Positions 2,206 to 56,068 of a DNA stretch of 63,572 nucleotides are shown here, piece after piece. The stretch spans positions 1 to 63,572 of the IMG/VR virus record IMGVR_UViG_3300009788_000107. One strand, written 5' to 3'. Numbering within the stretch: the first letter of the stretch is position 1; the number at the start of each line of letters is the position of its first letter. The notes below the pieces were generated by a model. The model made no database searches. It was not told the DNA's origin and saw only the letters and a list, made by a program, of their open reading frames with translations. The position numbers and the translations under genes were made by a program. The stretch is from a virus. Lineage: Duplodnaviria; Caudoviricetes.

Positions 2206-4683
2206 TCATCCGTTTCTCGGGACGACTCGCACCGGATCCAGCGCTGGAACGTTCGCGACCGGGTCTCTCGCTGGAACATCCGAACTCGGCGGCGTTTCGA
2301 TGAGCGCCTGGCCCGACTGTCCGGTCGCCGCCGCGATCGCGACGCCCGCTGAAGCCATCACAGCGGCGTGAGTCGAGATCCCGACTCCAGAGACCGTCGC
2401 GAGTCCGACAGAAGACGCCGCCGAGCCCGAGAGGAGCGCCTGGCCGACACCGGAGACAGAGGCGACGCCATTCGACGCCGCGACCGCATGTCGGCCCGTT
2501 TCGCCGTCTCCAGCGTTTACTGAGACGCCGTTCGCGTTCGCGACACCCGCGTGAGTCGATCGCCCGATGCCGGAGTTCACCGAGACGCCCGCGCTTGACC
2601 CGACGCCCGCTCGGATGCTCGCCCCGACCCCTGAGACAGCTCCGACGCCGCTCGAGGACCCCACGCCAGCGACGATGGCCTCGCCGACGCCGGATCCGAC
2701 GCCAGCGCCCGCTGAGGACGCGATCGCGGCGTGAGTAGACCTCCCGACCCCTGTTCCGACTCCCGAGCCGCTCGCGGAGGCGACAGCCGCCGCTGTCGAA
2801 CGTCCGACACCCGATCCGACCCCGACTCCGGCCGAACTCATCGCGGCCGAGTGAATCGAGCGCCCGACACCGCTCACAGCGGCGACGCCGTCCGAGGACC
2901 CAACTCCGGCGACGACTTCCTTCGCCTCACCGACCCCGAGGACCGTCGCGAGGCCCGCTGAAGCGCCGACCGCATGGATCCCGGTCTCACCGTCCGCTGA
3001 GGCCGTCGCGACGCCTGAGGAGGCGGCGACCGCCGCGTGAGTCGACCTCCCGGCCCCTAAGACGGCCGCGACGCCGTCAGAGGACGCGACAGCCGCCCGT
3101 ATCGACGCGCCGACGCCGGAGACCGCTCCCGCGCCGTTCGAGGAGCCGACCGCATGTCTCCCGGTCTCCCCGATCCCGGTGACGACCGCGACACCGTCTG
3201 AGGAGCCGTCTCCGGCCGCTGTGGAGATTCCGACGCCGGTCGCCGTCCCGATACCATCAGAGGAGCCGTCTCCGGCGACACGAGGCGCGCCGACGCCGAA
3301 AGCGACCCCTTCCCCGGCCGCTGACGCGACAGCGGCGTGAGTGGACCGGCCGACCCCGTCGTTCGAGGAGACGCCAGCGCTCGACGCGGTCGCTGAGACG
3401 ATCTGAACGGCGACACCGACACCAGAGACCGCCGCCGAGCCGTCCGAAGAGCCGACGCCGTTCCAGATCGCGTTCCCGACCCCTGTCGCGACACCAGCAC
3501 CGTTCGAGGCTCCGACAGCCCCATAAGTCGACCGCCCGACGCCTGAGGCGACACCAGCGCCCGCTGAAGCGCCGACAGCGTGTCTCCCGGTCTCGCCGAC
3601 CCCTGAGACCGACGCGACACCGTTCGAGACCGCCTCGGAGCCTGAGAGCGCCTCACCGACACCAGAGACAGTCGCAACGCCCGCTGAAGCGGCGACCGCG
3701 TGTCGTCCAGTCTCTCCGTCGCCCGAAACAGCCGCGACACCGTCCGAGGAGGCGTCGGCCGCGTGAGTTAATCGGCCGACCCCGTCGTTCGTCGAAACCC
3801 CGTCGCTCGACGCGTCTCCGGCGTGTGTCGACCTCCCGACGCCAGTTCCGACAGCTACGCCGACCGAGGACCCGGCCCCGCCTCGGATACTGGCTCCGAC
3901 GCCAGCGTTCGCCGAGACGCCAGCAGAGGAGGCGACCGCCGCATGAGTCGAGCGCCCGATTCCGGTCGCGACACCAGCGCCAGCGGAAGCAGCGTCGGCC
4001 GCGTGAGTCGAGATCCCGACTCCAAGCGCGACGCCTTCGCCGTCTGAAGAGCCGACCGCGTGTCGACCTGTCTCACCGACACCTGTAGCTGTGCCGACGC
4101 CGTCTGAGGAGCCGTCCCCCGCTCGAACGCTTGCGCCAACTCCGTTGACCGCCGCGACGCCGTCTGATGACGCGACCGCGAGTCGACCCGCTTCACCGTC
4201 CCCTGAGACGGTCGCGACCCCATCTGAAGAGAAGTCTGCCGCCGCTGTCGAGATCCCGACGCCGGTCCCGACTCCAGCCCCCGCGCTGGCGGCGGCGGCG
4301 GCGTGTGTGGAGATCCCGATACCGTCTGTCGTCGCGGCTCCGGCCGAGGACCCGACTCCGGACCTGATACTGGCTCCAACGCCAGCGTTCGCGGAGACAC
4401 CAGCACTCGCCGCGACCGCTGCATGAGTCGATCGGCCGATTCCGGTCGCGACACTAGTGCCAACGCTGGAGGCGGTCGCCGCGTGAGTTGAGATCCCAAT
4501 CGACGCCACCACAGCGACGCCAGCGGCGCTCGCGACAGCGGCGACGATCGATCGGCCGACACCTGTCCCGACTCCGGCTCCAGCCGACGACATCGCGCCG
4601 GACTGAATGTCGGGACCGCCGAAGAGCTGGAGAGGGAGTCCAGTCTTCGGCCCGAACGGTTGACCGCGTCCGAAGATCGCCAT
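2206..4683 (-). CDS. Gly/Ala/Ser/Val-rich 20-aa-repeat protein, putative virion fibre
   Basis: 825 aa with roughly 37 imperfect 20-aa repeats such as GIGRSTHAAVAASAGVSANA. Confidence 0.8.
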   Translation of the reverse strand: MAIFGRGQPFGPKTGLPLQLFGGPDIQSGAMSSAGAGVGTGVGRSIVAAVASAAGVAVVASIGISTHAATASSVGTSVATGIGRSTHAAVAASAGVSANAGVGASIRSGVGSSAGAATTDGIGISTHAAAAASAGAGVGTGVGISTAAADFSSDGVATVSGDGEAGRLAVASSDGVAAVNGVGASVRAGDGSSDGVGTATGVGETGRHAVGSSDGEGVALGVGISTHAADAASAGAGVATGIGRSTHAAVASSAGVSANAGVGASIRGGAGSSVGVAVGTGVGRSTHAGDASSDGVSTNDGVGRLTHAADASSDGVAAVSGDGETGRHAVAASAGVATVSGVGEALSGSEAVSNGVASVSGVGETGRHAVGASAGAGVASGVGRSTYGAVGASNGAGVATGVGNAIWNGVGSSDGSAAVSGVGVAVQIVSATASSAGVSSNDGVGRSTHAAVASAAGEGVAFGVGAPRVAGDGSSDGIGTATGVGISTAAGDGSSDGVAVVTGIGETGRHAVGSSNGAGAVSGVGASIRAAVASSDGVAAVLGAGRSTHAAVAASSGVATASADGETGIHAVGASAGLATVLGVGEAKEVVAGVGSSDGVAAVSGVGRSIHSAAMSSAGVGVGSGVGRSTAAAVASASGSGVGTGVGRSTHAAIASSAGAGVGSGVGEAIVAGVGSSSGVGAVSGVGASIRAGVGSSAGVSVNSGIGRSTHAGVANANGVSVNAGDGETGRHAVAASNGVASVSGVGQALLSGSAASSVGLATVSGVGISTHAAVMASAGVAIAAATGQSGQALIETPPSSDVPARDPVANVPALDPVRVVPRNG
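2330..4570. repeat. degenerate 60-bp coding tandem repeat
   Basis: 60-nt periodicity is visible as column alignment in lines 3781-4561 (e.g. gcgtgagtcg/gcatgagtcg recurring in the same register). Confidence 0.85.
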
Positions 4684-29507: not shown

Positions 29508-30033
29508 AGAGCCTCCGTCGTCTGAGTGACAGTGACACCGAGCGAAGGAGCCAGTTTCATGAAGGCGAGAACACCCTCGATCAGCTCGTCGTCGGTGAGG
29601 ACTTGGACGGACGGAAACCCGAGAGCGGCGAAGTGGCGCTTCACCGAGAGGCAGGTTCGACGCAATCTCCAGCGCCGATACGTCGCTCGAACCAAGTCGA
29701 GATTGATCATGTCTAAACCTCCGTCCGTCCGTCCGTTAGGAGCTGTGAATCTACTCCGCGAAGCGACTCGGCGTCAAGCTCACCCGTAGAACCGGTGAGG
29801 GGTCGGCCCATCGTTCAGGAGTCCAGGCGGGATCCCGAACCAGCGTGCGATCTCCTTCGCTTGCAGTTCGCGGAGCGCGAGGAACTCTCCAGAGGAGACG
29901 ATCGCCTGTTTCCCGTGGAGCGGCGCGGTCGCGCCCATCGCGAAGAACCTCGCGGCATAGTCGGAGGCGACAGGCGTCCTGAATGCGACGACGACCGGCG
30001 CGGCAAGTATCGAGAAGAAGACTCGTCTATTCA

Positions 30034-30777
30034 TTAGTCGTTCACCAGGATCATCGAGTATTGAACGAACGCCGCTGTATCGTCCGCGTCGACGGAGACA
30101 ATCCACTTCAGATCGCCCGTTTCGTATTTCGTCGGAACGCCGTTCGCGAGGTCCGGCGAGGGAGAACCGTCCGACCGCTGGCGGAAATCGTTTTGTATCC
30201 GCCACGCGCCGCCAGTCGGTCGGTAGAAGAGTCGGAAGTTTCCCTGTTTTGATGCGCCGCCCGCCGCCGCCGCGATCGAGGTATGCATCGAGATCATATA
30301 GACGCTATGAGAGACCGGGATCAAATAGTGACCGATCAAGCTCTGACCGTCGCCCGCCGCGATCGTGCATTGGCGAGCGCCGGATCCGGACGAGGTCGGA
30401 TCGATCGTGATGATCCCGGCGTTCTCTAGACCGGTCCCGGTTGTCACGACGAAGACGCGGTTCAGACGGATGAAGGCCTGAGTCGTGACGACCGGCGTCA
30501 GTCCGGCGAGCGTAACGATTTCGGTGATCTCCTCGAAACTGGCGTCGCAACCTTCAAGCAGAACGGTTCGAGCGCCGGTCCCCGCGCCCGCGTCGGCCGC
30601 ATCCGTACTCACAATGTCGAGCGTTTCTGCCGCTGCGAGGTACGTCCGGAGTCCGCCTGTCGCCCAGACTTCCTCAGCGGCGGCGAGGTCGACGTCGGCG
30701 TTCCGGCCGAACTTGTTCACGATCCGATGGGACTGAATGTTTCCCTTCGCGAGCCTCAGCGAGTATTCGTCCATCAT
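30034..30777 (-). CDS. conserved hypothetical, probably structural protein
   Basis: KFGRNADVD...EEVW...GTGARTV.LEG.D...E.VTL.G..PV.T...FIRLNR, a family I recognise from environmental phages. Confidence 0.7.
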   Translation of the reverse strand: MMDEYSLRLAKGNIQSHRIVNKFGRNADVDLAAAEEVWATGGLRTYLAAAETLDIVSTDAADAGAGTGARTVLLEGCDASFEEITEIVTLAGLTPVVTTQAFIRLNRVFVVTTGTGLENAGIITIDPTSSGSGARQCTIAAGDGQSLIGHYLIPVSHSVYMISMHTSIAAAAGGASKQGNFRLFYRPTGGAWRIQNDFRQRSDGSPSPDLANGVPTKYETGDLKWIVSVDADDTAAFVQYSMILVND

Positions 30778-30787
30778 CGGTTTCTCC

Positions 30788-31258
30788 TCACGGAATGAAT
30801 CGTGGGTTCGTCGGCGGCGCGATCATGATGAGCGTCGCCCCTTCGACGGAGCATCCGTCCGCCGAGTCCCAGACGCCGGTCGCGGTCCCGAGATCGTTAC
30901 AGGCGATCACCTTTGTTTTGAGCTGAACGTACGTGTCCTGAAGGCGGAACTCGTACTGTTCTGCGGCGCACGTCGGATCCCCACACGGAACGAGACCGGC
31001 GTCGAACCAGGTCGACCCGTCGTACACCATGAACCGAGCGACTTCACAGCCAGGATTCAGACCAGGGTTTGACGGGTCCGGACAGCGCTGGACGAGCGCC
31101 GCGTCGGCATAGCCCCAGACGAGGAGCGGACCGAGCGCGAGCGGGTCGAACACCCCGAGCGGCGGCTCTGACCCGAACGGATTCTGAAACGTGATCGGCG
31201 TCCGGACGGAACAGCTCGCCGTCGCAAGCGTCAGCGCGACAACGATCGCGGCTCTCAT
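30788..31258 (-). CDS. putative lipoprotein
   Basis: Hydrophobic leader ending LATASC; C-terminal APPTNPRF. Confidence 0.6.
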   Translation of the reverse strand: MRAAIVVALTLATASCSVRTPITFQNPFGSEPPLGVFDPLALGPLLVWGYADAALVQRCPDPSNPGLNPGCEVARFMVYDGSTWFDAGLVPCGDPTCAAEQYEFRLQDTYVQLKTKVIACNDLGTATGVWDSADGCSVEGATLIMIAPPTNPRFIP

Positions 31259-31668
31259 CCGATCACAATCTGAGTGGTTCCGACGACCTCCGCGAAGCGC
31301 GGGTTCGACGGTCCGCCAGGTTGCCGGATCGCGTTGTTGGTCGCGGGGACGTCGACCGAGGCGATCGTCGGATCGAACACCGCTCGGAACACGCCGGTAT
31401 AGGTCCCGAAGGTGATCGGCTGGACGTTGATCGACACCGTGACATCTTGACCCGCGACGCCGGTCGGTTTCCCGAGCGGGATCGTTGCCTCGATAGCTCC
31501 GGATGAATCGACCAGGTCAACCTCGTAACTCGTGACCAGGCTGTGATCGACCGACAGCTCGAACCTAACCTCTGAGGGATTGACGACGTCCTGTGCGTGT
31601 GCGGGAGCGACCAGAAAGACCAGGACGAACGAGACGAGAAGAATCAGCGCGACAGTGAGTGTCTTCAT
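31255..31668 (-). CDS. secreted FN3/Ig-like protein
   Basis: Signal peptide ending APAHA-Q; beta-rich; C-terminal PGGPSNPRF. Confidence 0.65.
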   Translation of the reverse strand: MKTLTVALILLVSFVLVFLVAPAHAQDVVNPSEVRFELSVDHSLVTSYEVDLVDSSGAIEATIPLGKPTGVAGQDVTVSINVQPITFGTYTGVFRAVFDPTIASVDVPATNNAIRQPGGPSNPRFAEVVGTTQIVIG

Positions 31669-31793
31669 TCGGACAGCCTATCACGCGATTGAGTAAGACA
31701 GCCGGGACGACCCGTACGCCTCCGTTGCGCGCTACTAAGAGACCGCGAGTGGGACCCCGGCTGACCTACCCACAAATTAGGGTAATAATATAC

Positions 31794-31822
31794 TTGACTC
31801 CCCACTACTTACCCAGTAATAT
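31794..31822 (+). promoter_or_regulatory. sigma70-like promoter of the transposase
   Basis: TTGACT (31794-31799), 17-bp spacer, TAATAT (31817-31822). The ATG follows 6 nt later, suggesting a leaderless mRNA. Confidence 0.65.
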
Positions 31823-31828
31823 AGGGGC

Positions 31829-32779
31829 ATGTCAGACGTAGGCACCCCTAAAACCCTCCAAGAAGCCATTATCCACTTCGCTGACCCAGAGGTAGCGCAC
31901 CAGACGATGGTCCAGATGCGCTGGCCCCACGGCGTCGCCTGTCCGACCTGTGGCAATATCGAAGTAAAATACCGAGCAAAACAGCGCACCTGGCGCTGCC
32001 GTGAGCATAGCAAGAATCAGGACTTCTCGGTCAAGAAGGGCACGATCTTCGAGGACAGCCCGATTAGCCTCTCAAAGTGGCTCACGGCCATCTGGTTGAT
32101 AGCGAACTGCAAGAACGGTATCAGTAGCTACGAACTAGCCGGCTCCATCGGTGTTACCCAGAAGACCGGCTGGTTCATGCTTCAGCGGATTCGGAAAGCG
32201 ATGCAGGCCAAGACGTTCGACAAGCTCGGGGAAGAGGTCGAGATAGACGAGACCTACATCGGCGGCAAGGCTCGGAACATGCACAAGGGGCAGCGCAAGC
32301 TAAAGGGGACGGGCGGTGTCGGCAAGGCAGTGGTCATGGGACTCTTGCAGCGGCACGGGCCAGACAAACATTCGACCGTGCGAACGACGGTCATTGGTCG
32401 ACCTCGCAAGTATGTCCTTCAGGGCGAAGTGCTCGACACGGTCGCGCCGGGGTCACAGGTCTACACGGACGAGCTAAAGTCCTACGATGGACTCGACAGC
32501 CACTACGCCCACAAGGTCATCAACCACGCGGAGAGTTATGCGCGCGGCAACGTGCATACGAACGGCATCGAAAACTTCTGGAGCTTGCTCAAGCGGTCGC
32601 TCTCCGGCACATATGTCAGTGTTGAACCCTTCCACCTATTCCGGTATCTTGACGAGCAGGCGTATCGGTTCAACCATCGGAAGCAGACGGACGCGGAGCG
32701 GTTCGCGGGTGTGCTAAGTTCAGTCGAAGGACGGCGCGTGACTTATCAGCAACTAACGGGACGCCCAGGCGATTTGTAG
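31829..32779 (+). CDS. IS1595-family DDE transposase
   Basis: N-terminal Zn ribbon RWPHGVACPTCG; FSVKKGTIFEDS; VEIDETYIGG; YTDE; HTNGIENFWSLLKR; YLDEQAYRFN. Confidence 0.95.
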   Translation: MSDVGTPKTLQEAIIHFADPEVAHQTMVQMRWPHGVACPTCGNIEVKYRAKQRTWRCREHSKNQDFSVKKGTIFEDSPISLSKWLTAIWLIANCKNGISSYELAGSIGVTQKTGWFMLQRIRKAMQAKTFDKLGEEVEIDETYIGGKARNMHKGQRKLKGTGGVGKAVVMGLLQRHGPDKHSTVRTTVIGRPRKYVLQGEVLDTVAPGSQVYTDELKSYDGLDSHYAHKVINHAESYARGNVHTNGIENFWSLLKRSLSGTYVSVEPFHLFRYLDEQAYRFNHRKQTDAERFAGVLSSVEGRRVTYQQLTGRPGDL

Positions 32780-32822
32780 GGGCCACGGAACTGCCAATTT
32801 CGAGGAAGACGGCGCAGGCCAG

Positions 32823-32993
32823 ATGACAGCGCGACCATCGTGGACACCACCGGCGACCGAAGGCGAGACACCGCACGCGCGGTTCACGAATCTACTGGCT
32901 CGTCTGCTCAAAGTCCCAAAGCACGAAATCGACGAACAACGAGAAAGCGAACGAGTAGCTAAGACCAGGAAAAAGAAAGCTGCATCAGACTAG
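32823..32993 (+). CDS. small basic IS-associated ORF (56 aa; not in ORF track)
   Basis: MTARPSWTPPATEGETPHARFTNLLARLLKVPKHEIDEQRESERVAKTRKKKAASD. Resembles short RF..LL..LL.VPK.EI peptides I associate with the 3' side of such transposases. Confidence 0.6.
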   Translation: MTARPSWTPPATEGETPHARFTNLLARLLKVPKHEIDEQRESERVAKTRKKKAASD

Positions 32994-33079
32994 GTGCGGG
33001 CGGTGGGAGTCGAACCCACAAGCCCTGCCAGGCGGCGATTCTAGAAATCGCTGTGTTTACCGATTTTCACCACGCCCGC
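32993..33079 (-). tRNA. type II (Leu-like) tRNA with CUA anticodon - amber suppressor
   Basis: GCGGGCG acceptor / GTG-AAAATCGGTAAA-CAC D arm / GCGAT-TTCTAGA-ATCGC anticodon arm (U33, CUA at 33044-33042, G37) / long variable arm / GTGGG-TTCGACT-CCCAC T arm / CGCCCGC-A-CC. Terminal A of CCA is not encoded. Confidence 0.9.
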
Positions 33080-33101
33080 ATCCTGGTTTCCTCGCCGAAG
33101 T

Positions 33102-34289
33102 TCACACGGTCGCCGCTTCTGATTGCAAGCCAGGCACTGAGTCTGTTTCGCTAGCGAACGGGTCTTCGTGTTCTGGACCACGCTCCGCTTCACGCACCTT
33201 TTTCCAAATCTCTTGCAGTTGCAGGCCTGGGAAATAGCGGCGACCCTTTCGCTCACCCGCAGTGACTATGAACCCATGGTCGGCTAACATCTTAAGGTCT
33301 CTAGTTGCGACGTGTTCAGGAACGCCCGCTGCGTGCCGATAGTGGGGATTCCTAATACCGTTTTGCGGGCGCATGGTCACATTGACTAAGCTAGCCACCA
33401 TCCTTTCCGGAAGTTTCGCGCTGGCAATTAATTGCTCAACCTCATCCCACACGCGCTGCATTTGGCGAGTTCGACGGAGCAATCGCATCGCTTGGCGATA
33501 GTGGGCAATCAAACAGAATCGAATCCATCGGCTTGTGTCGTTCTCAGGATGCCATGCTCCTTTTGCCGTGTCTGACAGCACAGCGTAATAGTCTGCGCGC
33601 TCGTTCCATAGATACTCTTCAATGCTGCAAAACTCTGGGCTTAGGATCTCCTCCCGAGCTAGAACCATGGTTTGGAGACATCTGGCCATTCGACCATTTC
33701 CGTCTGAGAACGGGTGAATCATTACCAAGTTAAGGTGCGCCATAGCTGCCCGTATCATCGGTGGCAGAGCAGAAGCTTCAGACAGGTCGCTGACTAATTC
33801 CGTGACTAGCTCAGGGATAAGTGCGTCGTCAGGAGCGTCGTACACCACCTTCTTTGTTGCCTCGTTTCGGACATAGATCGGCCCAGGGCGGTATCGGCCG
33901 GGATGTTTTGGTGGTCCGTAGTCGAGGGTGTATTTCATGATCATGAAGTGCAACCCTCGGATGAGGTCATCTGAATATTTGAAGTGAAGATCGTCCGAGA
34001 GCTGCAGAACGTATGTCATTGCCTCTTGATAACCACGGACGGCGGCCCAGGTTTTCCCTGGGGTCTCAATAGGTTCTTCACCATCAACGGCGGCAACAGC
34101 ATCCTCGTCGCTTACGTGATACCCCTCGATGCTATTCGACCCTTGGAGCGCTTTGGCAGCCGCAAAGCGACTAAGCAAACCGGTCCAGCGGCGCGGCTGG
34201 ACGGCATTGCGTAGCCGCTTCCTGAGATCATCAATACGTTTATGGACCTCTACCTCATGTGGGGTAAGGTCAATAGCTCTGAATAACAT
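33102..34289 (-). CDS. Fic-family AMPylase with N-terminal inhibitory motif and probable C-terminal HTH
   Basis: Catalytic HPFSDGNGRMAR; inhibitory (S/T)xxxE(G/N) motif SNSIEG; C-terminal ATRDLKML...GERKGRRY. Confidence 0.92.
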   Translation of the reverse strand: MLFRAIDLTPHEVEVHKRIDDLRKRLRNAVQPRRWTGLLSRFAAAKALQGSNSIEGYHVSDEDAVAAVDGEEPIETPGKTWAAVRGYQEAMTYVLQLSDDLHFKYSDDLIRGLHFMIMKYTLDYGPPKHPGRYRPGPIYVRNEATKKVVYDAPDDALIPELVTELVSDLSEASALPPMIRAAMAHLNLVMIHPFSDGNGRMARCLQTMVLAREEILSPEFCSIEEYLWNERADYYAVLSDTAKGAWHPENDTSRWIRFCLIAHYRQAMRLLRRTRQMQRVWDEVEQLIASAKLPERMVASLVNVTMRPQNGIRNPHYRHAAGVPEHVATRDLKMLADHGFIVTAGERKGRRYFPGLQLQEIWKKVREAERGPEHEDPFASETDSVPGLQSEAATV

Positions 34290-34408
34290 TTAAGGTGCCA
34301 TGTAAGAATGTATGTTATAAACCAACTCTGAGGCGTATGATATCTTACAAGAGACATAATATCAAACATATTTCGTGGTAATATATCCAACATTAGGGAG
34401 AGAACTTT

Positions 34409-34681
34409 CTACTTTCGCCTAATAGATACGAGATATAGTGGTGTTTGCACGCATGGCCTGTTGTCGCAGCGGTGGAGAACCTGAAGGCCTGGCGGGATAG
34501 CTCCGTGCGTCAGTTCGTAACTGAACCGATGAGCGTCGATCTTCCTGTTGCTTTTCCTGTGTTCGCCGATCCAAAACCGGCCGTATCCTCCCCGACGTTG
34601 GCCGAGCCATATCCAACACTCGCCGCTGTGTGCGTCGACCTTCTGCCAGAACCGATCGATCGTTGATCGCGGATAGCTCAT
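34409..34681 (-). pseudogene. truncated HNH homing endonuclease
   Basis: RFWQKV...CWIW...AHRFSYEL..G.IP.GLQVLHRCDNRPCV, then unrelated AT-rich sequence where NP.HL should follow. Confidence 0.7.
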
Positions 34682-35307
34682 CGGTCTGAAAGTGGAACGA
34701 ACCGGTCCGGCGCGTTCCCTCGTGGAGGTTGCGGGTCGACGCGGCGAGGCGTCGGAGTCGGTCGCTTCACGCCGGAGAAGGTGAACGTGATCGCGGTCGT
34801 ATAGTTTGTCTTCGTGAACGTCCGGATCTCCGTTGCGCCGCCTGGAGGCGCGAGGCCGGGAACGAACGTCGGATCCGCGAAGACGGCGTTCGGTTGCGCG
34901 CAGACAGCGACGCCGACGCCGAAGGCCATTCCGCCGCGCTTGAACGCGAACGTCGGTCCAGCGCAGAGCTTGTCTATGATATTTTCCCCAGGCTCGGCGA
35001 GGATGCTCGGTCCGACCTCAAGCCACGGGAGAACGGGGAACAAAAGCTGAAGCGATCCGACAGGTCGAACAGCGGAGTCGAGATCCTCGTCGGTCTGGAT
35101 CACGATCGCGTCTTTCCCCTCACCGAAGATCGCGAGACCGGCGCGAGGGTCGTTAAAGTTTGTCCGGAACGTGGTCCCGACTGCCCACCATCGGACCTCG
35201 CCGTTCGGGTCGACCTCGTCCTCGTCCTCCTGAGCGAAGACCGGCGCGACGGTGATCGAGAGGACGAACCAGAAGACGAGCGTCGAGATCAGCGTTCGTA
35301 CGATCAT
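34678..35307 (-). CDS. secreted / possible outer-membrane protein
   Basis: Signal peptide ending APVFA-Q; amphipathic beta-strand pattern. Confidence 0.6.
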   Translation of the reverse strand: MIVRTLISTLVFWFVLSITVAPVFAQEDEDEVDPNGEVRWWAVGTTFRTNFNDPRAGLAIFGEGKDAIVIQTDEDLDSAVRPVGSLQLLFPVLPWLEVGPSILAEPGENIIDKLCAGPTFAFKRGGMAFGVGVAVCAQPNAVFADPTFVPGLAPPGGATEIRTFTKTNYTTAITFTFSGVKRPTPTPRRVDPQPPRGNAPDRFVPLSDR

Positions 35308-36407
35308 GTGAGCCTCATTCCCTGTCCGAAGACCGCGACGACGTCGCTGATCTTGTTTGCGATCGTGATGTCCGGTCCGCCTTGCTGAGGACCGCCCGCG
35401 AAGAGAAGCGACCAGAGTTCGGATCCATCGTCCGAGACAATCCACGACCCCGAGTCGCCGCCCGCGCTTCCCGCGCTCACGCCGTCCCGGTGTGTGTAGA
35501 TGTCCTGATCCTCGAACTCGGCGACATTCGAGCCCCCGTATCCCACGTCGACGACTCCCTCGACGCCGGTACAGATCAGCGGAGTGAGAAGCGTCGTCCG
35601 GCCGAGCTTATTCGTAAGACCGCCGAGCGGCGCGACGCCGAAGTTCTGCGGCTGTCCGATCCCTTCGATCTCCGGAATGATCAAGTCTTGGTCGAGAAGT
35701 TTCTGAAGCGACGCGTCGACGTGGTTCTTCCCCCAGGGTTGTTCTAAGTACCTGGGACCGACCCGCATTCGGAACGGACAGCGCGTCGCCCTCGCGCCCG
35801 CATTCCCGAGAGCGCGAACCGAGTTCCACCAGGCTTTCGCGATCATGGTGTTTTTCTTCCCTGGGACGCTCGCGCCTCGCATCGTGATCTCGGCCCACTC
35901 CGCGAGCGTCGCGACCTGGTCGACCGGATCGATTCCCTGGTCGTGTGGTCCCGGCTGGAGATAGTGATCGCCGACCTTGACCGCTGTCGACCAGTGAGGC
36001 GCGCCGACGTGCGCGTTCGTGAGGAGGAACCAGTCGCCGGAGGGTCCCCACTTCACGAACCCGCCGTTCGTCCCCGCTGTGATGCTGTGGTGTCCCCCTG
36101 AGGACCCGCCTCGGAACGGACGCGCTCGCCCGGTCCCGGCCTGAGACTCGACGTCGACCACTCGCGGGAGAATCGGACGCGGAGCCTCGAACAGCGGGAC
36201 CTCGATTACGTCGGTCGGTCCGCCGTCGATCTCGAGCGGAAGGCGATCGTCGGCCGCGACCAGGTCGAGAGGGATCTTCTTCTTCACCGAGAAGACCGTT
36301 CCGACGTCGTCGGTTCGCTGTCCACCCTTGAACTTATACCCGCGCCAGACGCCGTTCAGGTTTCGGTTCTTCGGTTTGAAATCGTTCGCGATCGTTCGGA
36401 CGTTCAT
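35304..36407 (-). CDS. trypsin-like serine protease
   Basis: Triad motifs LLTNAHV, HVDAS, GDSGS; QPG..D.G and K.GRTT motifs. Confidence 0.85.
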   Translation of the reverse strand: MNVRTIANDFKPKNRNLNGVWRGYKFKGGQRTDDVGTVFSVKKKIPLDLVAADDRLPLEIDGGPTDVIEVPLFEAPRPILPRVVDVESQAGTGRARPFRGGSSGGHHSITAGTNGGFVKWGPSGDWFLLTNAHVGAPHWSTAVKVGDHYLQPGPHDQGIDPVDQVATLAEWAEITMRGASVPGKKNTMIAKAWWNSVRALGNAGARATRCPFRMRVGPRYLEQPWGKNHVDASLQKLLDQDLIIPEIEGIGQPQNFGVAPLGGLTNKLGRTTLLTPLICTGVEGVVDVGYGGSNVAEFEDQDIYTHRDGVSAGSAGGDSGSWIVSDDGSELWSLLFAGGPQQGGPDITIANKISDVVAVFGQGMRLT

Positions 36408-36856
36408 AGCCTCTCCTCGACACACTCGCGAAAGTCGTCCAGATCGAACAGCTCGCCGGGACAGCTCTTCGCCGGGTTGAAATCGCGGTGTCCGACGATG
36501 CCCTCGACGTCGATCCCGAAGTAGTTACAGAGAAACGCGACGAACTTCGCGCTCGCGAGAAACACGTCGTCGGGAGGTTTGATCTCATCGTAGTTTCCGA
36601 CGATACAGACGCCGAGACTCTTCCGATTCATCCCGGCGTGTCGACAGTGCGCGCCGTTACGGCTCCAGCCGCGACCCATGAGGATCTCGGGGACCGGCTC
36701 ACCGTCGCGGCCGACGTTCGCCAGCTCGACCCCGAAGTGATAGCCGATATCGTTCCAGTGTTTCGTCTCAGTGTGGTATTTCCTGATCGCGCCCCAGGAC
36801 ACGGTTCCCGAGTCTTTCGTTAGACTGTGATGAATCATCACATGCTCGGGTGTCAT
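36404..36856 (-). CDS. endolysin, N-acetylmuramoyl-L-alanine amidase (Amidase_2, T7-lysozyme-like)
   Basis: IHHS...WNDIGYHF...GAHC...N..SLGVCIVGNYD...GHRDF...KSCPG. Confidence 0.92.
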   Translation of the reverse strand: MTPEHVMIHHSLTKDSGTVSWGAIRKYHTETKHWNDIGYHFGVELANVGRDGEPVPEILMGRGWSRNGAHCRHAGMNRKSLGVCIVGNYDEIKPPDDVFLASAKFVAFLCNYFGIDVEGIVGHRDFNPAKSCPGELFDLDDFRECVEERL

Positions 36857-37131
36857 TAGAGACCCTTCCGATAGAAGCGCCAGGTGAGGATCGCGAGACA
36901 GAGGACTTCGCTCAAGACGCCGATCATTTGCCAGACGTCGACACTCCCGCCTGTGAACCCGGTCCGCGCCAGGAAGACGCCCTTCTGAAACGCCTCCGCG
37001 TAGAAGTACAGGCCAAGAACCTGGAGGAGTGGACCGGAGTCCTTCGCGTACAGCCACGACCCGATCCGAACATCGGCCGCGAGCCGAAAGAGTGTCATCG
37101 CGAGATATGCCTCGGGAGGGATCTCACCCAT
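36856..37131 (-). CDS. small multi-pass membrane protein, holin candidate
   Basis: Hydrophobic segments, directly upstream of the endolysin. Confidence 0.5.
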   Translation of the reverse strand: MGEIPPEAYLAMTLFRLAADVRIGSWLYAKDSGPLLQVLGLYFYAEAFQKGVFLARTGFTGGSVDVWQMIGVLSEVLCLAILTWRFYRKGL

Positions 37132-54633: not shown

Positions 54634-54649
54634 TCCCAGGTACCTAGAA
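54634..54649. promoter_or_regulatory. palindromic motif copy 3 (TCCCAGGTACCTAGAA)
   Basis: Intergenic, 3 bp past the capsid stop. Confidence 0.5.
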
Positions 54650-54652
54650 AAA

Positions 54653-56068
54653 CTAGGCGCGCTCAGCGAGAAGAACCATGTGGGACTTGTTGTCCCCCTT
54701 GTTTGCGACGATCGGCGTCGACAGGAACGGCTGTCCGGCCAGACGGAAGATCCAGCGGAATGCCTGGATGTTGTAATCGAAGAACAGATGAATCGACGTC
54801 GCGAACTGAAGGCCCGCGCTCGGTCCGCCCTTCACAGCCGCGTAGTATCCCGCGCTGTTGATGAGCTGGAGATCGCCGAGGTCGCCCAACGTCTCCGCGT
54901 GCTCCGACCACATGATCGGATAGCCGAGCAGCATCCCGCCTGGCGTGACGGTGAGGCCGGACGTCGGCGACGTCCAGATCGGCTGATCTCCGATCGTCAT
55001 GACAGCGATCTGGGGGAGCGTGTTCCGATTCGCGAGCCAGAAGATCCGAGCGGTGTCGGATCCATCCGTGTGGAGCGCCCCGAACATCTTGAGGACGTTC
55101 GCCGCTTCGATGGTGTCCGCCGCTTGGCTCCCCTCCTTCGCGATGGTGATGGTCCCCGGCGCATTGAACCAACCGAGCGGCTGTCCCGCGCCGGTCCCGG
55201 TGACGATCGCCTCGGACGCCTTGAACCGAATCGCCGCGCCTGCCTGTTGCGTCAGGCGGTTGTTCAGTCGCGGCGCGTCGGCGAGGAGTTCCTCGGTCGC
55301 CAGGACGAACGCGTACAGCTCGTGAAGGCGAACGGTCTCGCGCTTCGTCTCGAGCTGGCTTGGCGTCATCTGTGCCGACTCGGCTCTCCAGCGAGCCTGA
55401 ACGCCAGTCGCGCCCCAGGGCGTGTTCTCGTCCGCCTCGACCTCGACGGAGTTGGAGTTCGTCGGCTCCGGCTGAACCGCCTCCAACATTCCTCCCTCAG
55501 CGAAGATGAGCTGAAAGATTGTGTTCCGGATCTCAGGCGGAACCATGTACCCCTCGGTCGTGTGGCTCTCCTGATGGAAGTTCGTCGGCGCATCGACCCG
55601 CCGCTGATTCCCCTCCAGGTCGCCGTACGCGACAGGTCCGACCGGCTGAGGTCCGGTCCCCGACCACATACGGGTCAGGCGCTCGTCGAGACGCTGGCCC
55701 GCGTTCGGCCGACTGACGTCCCGAACGGCGACCGCGAAGTCCGCCATGTCCGTAAACCCACACATGGGATCATCTTCGCCCCGGTCATGAACCGAGATCA
55801 CTCCGGCCGATCGGTTCGCGGCAGCAGCGGCGGCGGCGTCCGGTCCCGGTCCCCCTGCGCCCGACGCGGCGAGGTCGCGGTCACGCTGAGCGGACCGCTC
55901 GAGGATTGCGATCTCGGATTGGATCTGAGAGATCGCCGCTTCGAGAACTTTGATCTCCTCGGTCTCTTCGGCGGTCATTAGCCGATCTTCGGTTTCGAGC
56001 GCGGCCGTGATTTCTCGGATTCGGCCTTGCTTCTCTCGAAGCTGGTTCTGAAGTCTTTTCAGTCTCAT
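54653..56068 (-). CDS. major capsid protein, HK97 fold with N-terminal scaffolding (delta) domain
   Basis: Coiled-coil N-terminus; EGYMVPPE; ATEELLADA; GTGAGQPLG; LLGYPI; SIHLFFDY..AFR. Start MRLKRL at 56068 with GGAGG RBS. Confidence 0.95.
   Translation of the reverse strand: MRLKRLQNQLREKQGRIREITAALETEDRLMTAEETEEIKVLEAAISQIQSEIAILERSAQRDRDLAASGAGGPGPDAAAAAAANRSAGVISVHDRGEDDPMCGFTDMADFAVAVRDVSRPNAGQRLDERLTRMWSGTGPQPVGPVAYGDLEGNQRRVDAPTNFHQESHTTEGYMVPPEIRNTIFQLIFAEGGMLEAVQPEPTNSNSVEVEADENTPWGATGVQARWRAESAQMTPSQLETKRETVRLHELYAFVLATEELLADAPRLNNRLTQQAGAAIRFKASEAIVTGTGAGQPLGWFNAPGTITIAKEGSQAADTIEAANVLKMFGALHTDGSDTARIFWLANRNTLPQIAVMTIGDQPIWTSPTSGLTVTPGGMLLGYPIMWSEHAETLGDLGDLQLINSAGYYAAVKGGPSAGLQFATSIHLFFDYNIQAFRWIFRLAGQPFLSTPIVANKGDNKSHMVLLAERA

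Follow-up and report, generated by a model that had tools for sequence, protein, structure and literature searches.

A leucine-type tRNA gene with the amber anticodon CUA in a standard-code siphovirus contig

Can a phage that ends its own genes with TAG also carry a transfer RNA (tRNA) that reads TAG as leucine? The question is raised by a tRNA gene with the anticodon CUA in a siphovirus contig, IMG/VR record IMGVR_UViG_3300009788_000107, all 63,572 bases of which were analyzed here and are referred to as the window. We find that the gene is real and intact, that its body is of the leucine type rather than that of a Pyl, Ser, or Tyr tRNA, and that the phage carrying it uses the standard genetic code. 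As judged from sequence, the tRNA is probably a leucine-inserting amber suppressor, a reading to which we assign a probability of roughly 0.55 and which we favor because the gene is intact, carries the full set of leucine identity elements, and has analogs in other phages that evidently decode TAG. It would act as a weak to moderate suppressor and as accessory cargo on an IS1595-associated segment of low guanine-plus-cytosine (GC) content.

An intact type II tRNA gene with the anticodon CUA

A single tRNA, with the anticodon cta, was returned by ARAGORN for the window; it occupies 32993-33079 of the minus strand, in agreement with an initial annotation of this DNA that had named no strand. The gene, its anticodon arm, and its variable region lie as follows.

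32993..33079, minus strand: type II tRNA gene with a leucine-type body and the anticodon CUA (ARAGORN, Rfam RF00005, sequence, isotype profiles)
33035..33051, minus strand: anticodon arm, stem GCGAU/AUCGC, loop UUCUAGA (sequence, ARAGORN anticodon position, Logan contig)
33020..33034, minus strand: variable region of 15 nt, CGCCUGGCAGGGCUU (sequence; shows as an insertion in the Rfam alignment)

The label "Pyl" that ARAGORN attached to the gene stems from the CUA anticodon alone. Against the Rfam tRNA model RF00005, positions 33079-32995 aligned to the complete model (1-71) with 52.2 bits (E 2.4e-08; gathering score 29), which falls inside the range of 45.6-62.5 bits obtained for a comparison set of 26 type II tRNAs drawn from three bacterial genomes. 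The cloverleaf was taken from this covariance-model alignment; the single-strand minimum free energy fold differs from it and was not used.

All stems of the cloverleaf are fully paired. The acceptor stem (GCGGGCG/CGCCCGC) is paired at 7 of 7 positions and is followed by U8, the D stem (GUG/CAC) has three pairs and closes a 12-nt loop, AAAAUCGGUAAA, that contains G18G19, and the anticodon stem, paired at 5 of 5 positions, presents U33, the anticodon C34 U35 A36 at 33044..33042, and G37 at 33041. A 4-pair stem (GCCU/GGGC) with a GGCA loop forms the variable arm, with U48 at its 3′ end, and the T arm consists of the stem GUGGG/CCCAC and the loop UUCGACU. The discriminator base A73 stands at 32995 and is followed by CC and then U, leaving the CCA end only partly encoded. 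The conserved U8, A14, G18G19, U33, U54-U55-C56, and A58 are all kept. Every structural feature first described for this tRNA (the cloverleaf, the 5-bp anticodon stem, the loop UUCUAGA, U33, G37, the long variable arm, and A73) was borne out.

The stretch comes from one metagenomic source, and no second sample with it was found, which leads to the question of whether the anticodon is a sequencing or assembly artefact. In the sole public run with the stretch, a Logan contig covers 31752-34700 at a depth of ~13 with 0 differing letters, and CTA at 33044..33042 is unchanged in this second assembly. That run is probably the source sample, which makes the contig an independent assembly and not independent data, a second assembler and not a second sample. 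As the contig spans the whole gene with no listed variant, and as the changes that separate CUA from leucine anticodons were judged unlikely to be errors, we regard an artefact as scarcely credible.

The body of the tRNA is of the leucine type

The 3′-terminal 23-mer of the tRNA, comprising the T arm, the acceptor strand, and A73, was scanned in one genome per species, which gave at least 120 stretches. Among the matches listed, 99 of 101 ARAGORN tRNAs with this 23-mer were tRNA-Leu, with the anticodons taa (62), aag (21), tag (12), and caa (4); the remaining two were called Arg and Lys, and two of the 101 loci were viral. The best full-length identity to a bacterial tRNA-Leu, among these listed matches and the three-genome set, was 70/87. 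Isotype profile hidden Markov models were then built from all RF00005-matched tRNAs of 81-91 nt in the three genomes (12 Leu, 11 Ser, and 3 Tyr). In leave-one-out assignment these profiles were correct for 26 of 26 tRNAs, and they scored the window tRNA at 34.8 bits for Leu, 8.2 for Ser, and 5.2 for Tyr. The Leu score stayed at 29.7 bits once the three Leu tRNAs sharing the 23-mer had been removed from the profile. The 23-mer and the profiles together uphold the leucine-type body originally proposed.

The initial annotation had also set the gene apart from tRNA-Pyl, which is characterized by a short variable loop, a reduced D loop, and G73. This distinction stands, as the 15-nt variable region, the normal 12-nt D loop with G18G19, the 5-bp anticodon stem, and A73 do not fit tRNA-Pyl.

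Leucine identity in Escherichia coli depends, according to the available text of PMC9976931, on A73 (crucial), A15-U48, G18G19, A20a, U8:A14, G18:U55, G19-C56, and U54:A58; C2-G71 is an antideterminant against seryl-tRNA synthetase (SerRS), and tRNA-Ser has G73 as its discriminator. Leucyl-tRNA synthetase (LeuRS) is stated there to be indifferent to the anticodon and to the long-arm sequence. By our own numbering of the sequence, every one of these E. coli leucine determinants is present in the window tRNA, C2-G71 included, with the D loop reading A14 A15 A16 U C G18 G19 U20 A20a and the T loop reading U54 U55 C56 G A58 C U. The recognition logic first put forward, in which A73 and the architecture of the D and variable arms are read, thus matches the identity set in the available text of that source. 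A73 (Ser has G73) and C2-G71 speak against a tRNA-Ser identity, and the Ser and Tyr profile scores speak against a body of either type. Finally, the anticodon CUA reads no leucine codon (NAG or YAA), which makes the gene a putative Leu-body suppressor and not a tRNA-Leu isoacceptor.

A suppressor of leucine-type body might still be charged with another amino acid, mainly Tyr and otherwise Ser. CUA retains U35 and A36, the combination of A73 and a long arm suits bacterial tyrosyl-tRNA synthetase, and bacterial tRNA-Tyr is likewise type II with A73. Some TAG sites of the recoded relatives described below also face Tyr or Phe, among them the portal TAG site of contig G004 (Y in 4 of 5 homologs, F in 1 of 5) and two primase/helicase sites. 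Set against this are the isotype profiles, the 23-mer, for which 0 of 101 tRNAs among the matches listed are Tyr or Ser, and the TAG sites of G004 taken together, where Leu is the commonest counterpart (7/24) and Tyr is rare (1/24). The classical leuX-derived amber suppressor of E. coli inserts Leu. For Ser in particular, A73 and C2-G71 are present where G73 is the discriminator in the available text of PMC9976931. Charging with Tyr or Ser is accordingly judged very unlikely.

The carrier phage uses TAG as an ordinary stop codon

The carrier is a linear siphovirus contig of 61.8% GC with almost all genes on the minus strand, including those for the large terminase, portal, S49 protease, major head protein, and tape measure protein; an amidase endolysin and a protease-like protein are also encoded. 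The closest cultured phages infect Proteobacteria; identity to them does not exceed 39% for the large terminase and 45% for the S49 head-maturation protease.

Two crude selections of open reading frames (ORFs) gave TGA 47, TAG 15, and TAA 15 among 77 stop codons, and TGA 41, TAG 16, and TAA 13 among 70, with no depletion of TAG. TAG terminates about ten minus-strand genes, among them the major head gene, which has PHROG support. A scan for TAG-joined coding based on third-position GC content found in-frame TAG inside carrier genes only as an antisense artefact, and family alignments crossed TAG in 0 of 10 minus-strand frames that join two segments of at least 80 codons by TAG. As a control, such TAG-crossing alignments do appear in the recoded contigs G004, L170, and L174. 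No programmed read-through product was found in the carrier, and release factor 1, tyrosine integrase, and class-I synthetase domains were absent from the contig, which is estimated to be 75% complete. Stop codon counts, the TAG-ended head gene, and the alignments all agree with the original view that TAG is an ordinary stop here and that the genome is not simply recoded.

The end of the major head gene (54647-54655, minus strand) reads TAG TTT TTC TAG, with two in-frame TAGs two codons apart. The second TAG would not protect the major head gene from an amber suppressor, as it is the same kind of stop.

Leu-body CUA tRNAs occur in other phages, including TAG-recoded ones

Two restrictive patterns were used to scan IMG/VR, each of which called for TCTA at the anticodon together with a D loop of the Leu type, a long arm, and a T loop. 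The patterns found two and five contigs, giving seven others: G004, G005 (the same as L126), L170, L171, L172, L173, and L174. For all seven, ARAGORN gave the anticodon cta, and the best profile was Leu at 23.0-48.2 bits versus at most 20.4 for Ser or Tyr. Identity between these CUA tRNAs and the window tRNA is 65-80% and is highest for the tRNA of L172, a contig of 60% GC.

Three of the seven contigs are clearly TAG-recoded, namely G004, L170, and L174, with their tRNAs at L125:1435-1519 (minus strand; G004), L170:8377-8461, and L174:484-566. G004 is a T4-like contig of 144,840 bp with terminal repeats, in which PHROG alignments of the portal and the baseplate wedge cross in-frame TAGs. In L170 and L174, alignments of DNA polymerase, primase/helicase, helicase, and RNA ligase cross TAGs, up to 7 in a single alignment. 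No sign of recoding was seen in the stretches examined of L171, L172, and G005.

For G004, 24 TAG sites lay inside tblastn alignments to the standard-code Synechococcus phage BUCT-ZZ01. The reference had Leu at 7 of these 24 sites, compared with a background of 7.9% (binomial p 0.0019), and one of L, I, M, V, or F at 16 of 24, compared with a background of 29% (p 0.00016), while Gln was found at 1 of 24. In L170 and L174, the counterparts of well-aligned TAG sites are L, I, M, F, or Y, with L in 3/3, 3/4, and 3/4 homologs at three such sites. Read against a small number of reference genomes and by alignment rather than formal code inference, the TAG sites fit TAG = Leu and argue against Gln. 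Collectively, these contigs show that Leu-body CUA tRNAs form a class and that this class is associated with recoding. The window tRNA appears to belong to this wider class, which TAG-recoded phages would use to read TAG as leucine; membership makes the window copy less singular and the class itself more interesting.

Position 37 is A in 6 of the 7 other CUA tRNAs and G in that of L126/G005 (L126:9899-9983, on a 15,034-bp contig of 67% GC; loop AUCUAGG). This tRNA and the window tRNA are alike in G37 and have similar anticodon stems and variable arms. G005, a myovirus-like fragment, has tail sheath and baseplate hub genes that are intact when read in the standard code.

Searches with parts of the window tRNA returned little else. 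The exact anticodon arm had 0 matches in viral contigs and 0 in metagenome contigs, and the 5′ half had 0 in viral contigs. A motif of the shared anticodon and variable arms matched metagenome contigs once, at a place with no tRNA, and this match was taken as chance. With blastn, the tRNA matched GenBank phages in the T arm only, in 6 records that were mostly annotated as tRNA-Leu.

Proposed decoding and its likely efficiency

If the tRNA suppresses amber codons, it would be transcribed together with, or just behind, the Fic gene that lies upstream of it, and RNase P and 3′ nucleases would then process its ends. The gene encodes CC only, so that the host CCA-adding enzyme would have to complete the 3′ end. 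Host LeuRS, which reads A73 and the tertiary core and not the anticodon, would charge the tRNA with leucine, and the charged tRNA would compete with release factor 1 at UAG. Since the phage uses the standard code, suppression should yield only C-terminal tails, on TAG-ended host genes and on the TAG-ended share of phage genes, roughly 15%. The gain, if any, may be that of a part recently imported from a recoded lineage, of a tolerated early step toward recoding, or of disrupted termination in the host or competing elements.

The expected efficiency turns on position 37. The purine there is G and not the modifiable A37 usual beside A36, although A37 is not strictly needed. The bacterial enzyme TrmD requires G36-G37, and MiaA requires A36-A37. 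As A36-G37 is atypical and suits neither enzyme, decoding is expected to be less efficient, and we infer that suppression would be low to moderate.

Several observations weigh against the suppressor reading. Of the A36 tRNAs examined, 3 of 63 have G37, and among distinct tRNAs for Leu(UAA/CAA) the number is 0 of 40. As A36-G37 suits neither TrmD nor MiaA, position 37 may be unmodified and decoding poor. The consensus scan found no promoter-like site directly before the tRNA and no terminator-like site after it, and no RNA runs with the stretch are listed among the public runs. No gene that needs TAG decoding was found in the carrier, itself a metagenomic assembly with an estimated completeness of 75%. 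Read-through tails of TAG-ended genes would be 1-96 residues long, Arg-rich, and seemingly out of frame. With no TAG-containing gene and with tails that look like junk, the tRNA offers no apparent benefit and would be expected to carry some cost. Furthermore, function is not simply transferable from the recoded phages, as the nearest CUA relative is only 80% identical.

Several of these points would suit a neutral or decaying passenger instead, that is, a copy of tRNA-Leu, either borne by the segment or the phage's own, whose anticodon has drifted to CUA; such a tRNA may still fold and be charged, but with no selection for suppression. The carrier has no use for UAG decoding, and G37 next to A36 is atypical. 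The usual Leu consensus is broken in the D arm by A13 and A21-22, positions at which bacterial Leu tRNAs have G, a decayed HNH gene and a transposase adjoin the tRNA, and the same anticodon arm was found nowhere else in the viral and metagenome scans. Loss of constraint, however, would not be expected to leave every helix perfect and the conserved tertiary positions kept. To reach CUA from the nearest Leu loops takes at least one to three loop changes with the rest left intact, and the G37 form recurs in a second high-GC and apparently standard-code phage fragment (G005/L126). We therefore consider a passenger unlikely, though it must be taken seriously, and retain the leucine-inserting suppressor as the preferred reading.

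The tRNA lies in a low-GC segment with a Fic gene and an IS1595-family transposase

The initial annotation had placed the tRNA on a mobile cargo island. The features of its surroundings are listed here.

31650..34650, no strand: low-GC segment of ~3 kb (composition profile; Logan contig break)
31829..32779, plus strand: IS1595-family transposase, 316 aa, ends in TAG (Pfam PF12762, 2.3e-40, and PF12760; NCBIfam NF033547, 183 bits, cut-off 75)
32823..32993, plus strand: 56-aa ORF (ORF listing; no NCBIfam match)
33102..34289, minus strand: Fic-domain protein, 395 aa, motif HPFSDGNGRMAR intact (Pfam PF02661, 3.9e-15; phrog_5978; NCBIfam below cut-off)
34337..34365, minus strand: promoter-like site TTGATA-17-TATCAT, 10/12, upstream of the Fic gene (consensus scan)
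34409..34681, minus strand: truncated HNH endonuclease fragment, 90 aa (Pfam HNH_3; PHROG matches cover part of the profiles)

GC content is 0.43-0.58 at ~31.65-34.65 kb versus about 0.62 in the flanks, and within the segment lie the transposase, the 56-aa ORF, the tRNA, the Fic gene, and the HNH fragment. The segment was presumably inserted as accessory DNA, with the lysis genes on one side of it and the early genes on the other. The transposase and the 56-aa ORF, both on the plus strand, converge on the tRNA, and the TAG stop of the 56-aa ORF (32991-32993) touches the 3′ end of the tRNA from the opposite strand. On the minus strand, the Fic gene stops with TGA, and the tRNA starts 22 nt further 3′. 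The best Fic homolog, from a Mycobacterium abscessus prophage, has 47% identity and no adjoining tRNA. Near its N-terminus the window Fic protein has the stretch SNSIEG, which we take to resemble an inhibitory-helix motif.

Promoter-like sites numbered 3 in the region versus 1.6 expected in shuffles, a weak hint by which the site upstream of the Fic gene may be a candidate start for a Fic-tRNA transcript. Two neighboring genes were checked for dependence on TAG decoding. The tail of the transposase past its TAG is Arg-rich junk, which rejects a TAG-dependent extension. The HNH fragment is cut after the zinc-binding region and departs from the usual motif shortly before its stop; reading TAG as sense there adds only AT-rich junk and no homologous sequence.

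The placement of the tRNA could also point to a role other than decoding, as a 3′ processing or stabilizing element of the Fic transcript, a target or landmark of the mobile segment, or a decoy for a host nuclease that attacks tRNAs. The tRNA lies 22 nt past the Fic stop on the same strand, the sole promoter-like site on that strand is upstream of the Fic gene, a transposase adjoins it, and tRNA genes are common landmarks for mobile DNA. Arguing the other way, no integrase was found on the contig, no repeats matching the tRNA were found around the segment, and the closest Fic homolog, in the Mycobacterium prophage, has no tRNA beside it. A Fic or IS1595 homolog was found near 0 of the 7 other CUA tRNAs, so the pairing is not conserved, and neither a decoy nor a landmark needs a full leucine identity set. 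A non-decoding role thus seems improbable to us, and the suppressor reading is kept for the locus.

Mobility of the segment is plausible. The description as a cargo island is supported in part, by the GC dip, the IS1595 transposase, the Fic gene, and the HNH fragment. No convincing terminal inverted repeats or target-site duplication were found around the segment, and no segment-free relative was found. Megablast with 30000-37000 against GenBank phages gave no match, and no relatives were confirmed when viral contigs were searched with the Fic and protease-like proteins. When plasmids were searched with the island, the only match was one of 88 nt between the tRNA region and a Shinella replicon. 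The Logan contigs stop at 31688 and resume at 31752, which is the left edge of the low-GC segment, and depth dips there. This gap may be a population-variable junction or an assembly break only. It falls at an imperfect hairpin with arms at 31690-31706 and 31756-31772, just left of the transposase.

Relation to known suppressors and recoded phages

In the available text of 10.1101/2021.08.26.457843, codes that differ between phage and host are reported only as TAG-to-Gln and TGA-to-Trp; a suppressor tRNA is also described there in a standard-code relative of recoded phages, with gain of the suppressor proposed to come before recoding. The suppressors of recoded crAss-like and Lak phages, as presented in the available text of that paper and of PMC11210395, are likewise phage-borne, carry CUA, and depend on a host synthetase. 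They belong to low-GC gut phages, whereas the window combines a leucine-type body with 61.8% GC and with TAG as a frequent stop (15-16 of 70-77 ORFs). Klebsiella phage phiKp24 carries a tRNA-Sup-TTA with an arginine body, according to the available text of PMC8386662; like the window, it has a lone suppressor-type tRNA in a standard-code phage, but the stop codon is a different one and the body is that of arginine.

A leucine-type phage suppressor or a TAG-to-Leu phage code was not found in the full-text literature searched, which included the available text of PMC13037316 and PMC11210395 and had main texts, not supplementary tables, as its scope. The phrase "reassigned to leucine" had no occurrence in the papers that one of these searches listed. 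Phage suppressor tRNAs are already known, even in standard-code relatives, and it is a leucine-type amber one that was not found in the literature searched.

Outside phages, leuX/supP of E. coli is a leucine-inserting amber suppressor that is one substitution away from tRNA-Leu(CAA) and keeps A37. It shares with the window tRNA the combination of a tRNA-Leu body and CUA; the window tRNA differs in its G37 and divergent D arm and in being natural and phage-borne. tRNA-Pyl shares only the CUA anticodon with the window tRNA. In NCBI translation tables 16 and 22, which apply to green-algal mitochondria, TAG is read as Leu via tRNA-Leu(CUA). Those codes are organellar, so G004, L170, and L174 would represent a separate origin, and the window phage is not recoded.

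A broader idea, which we offer tentatively, is that Leu-body CUA tRNAs mark a natural TAG-to-leucine code in unrelated phages (G004, L170, and L174) and that the window shows such a tRNA being carried by an IS-associated segment into a phage of high GC that stops at TAG. If so, the window copy would represent either a "suppressor first" stage or a part of a code change that spreads horizontally, and it would have arisen with no prior depletion of TAG through low GC, the step that the current model puts first. The window copy would also test whether parts of a code change travel horizontally on mobile DNA. A leucine-type suppressor would be mechanistically the easiest stop reassignment, because LeuRS ignores the anticodon, and leucine would become the third amino acid in phage stop-codon recoding. 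An active tRNA would test whether a phage tolerates or exploits global amber read-through without recoding, and laboratory suppressors could be designed on the scaffold of natural Leu-body CUA tRNAs that bacterial LeuRS accepts. If the tRNA is inactive, the finding shrinks to an unusual passenger tRNA.

Elsewhere in the window, an 825-aa ORF at 2206-4683 on the minus strand (69% GC; no PHROG match) is repetitive and rich in Gly, Ala, Ser, and Val, with the units GVGRSTHAA and SSDGVA.

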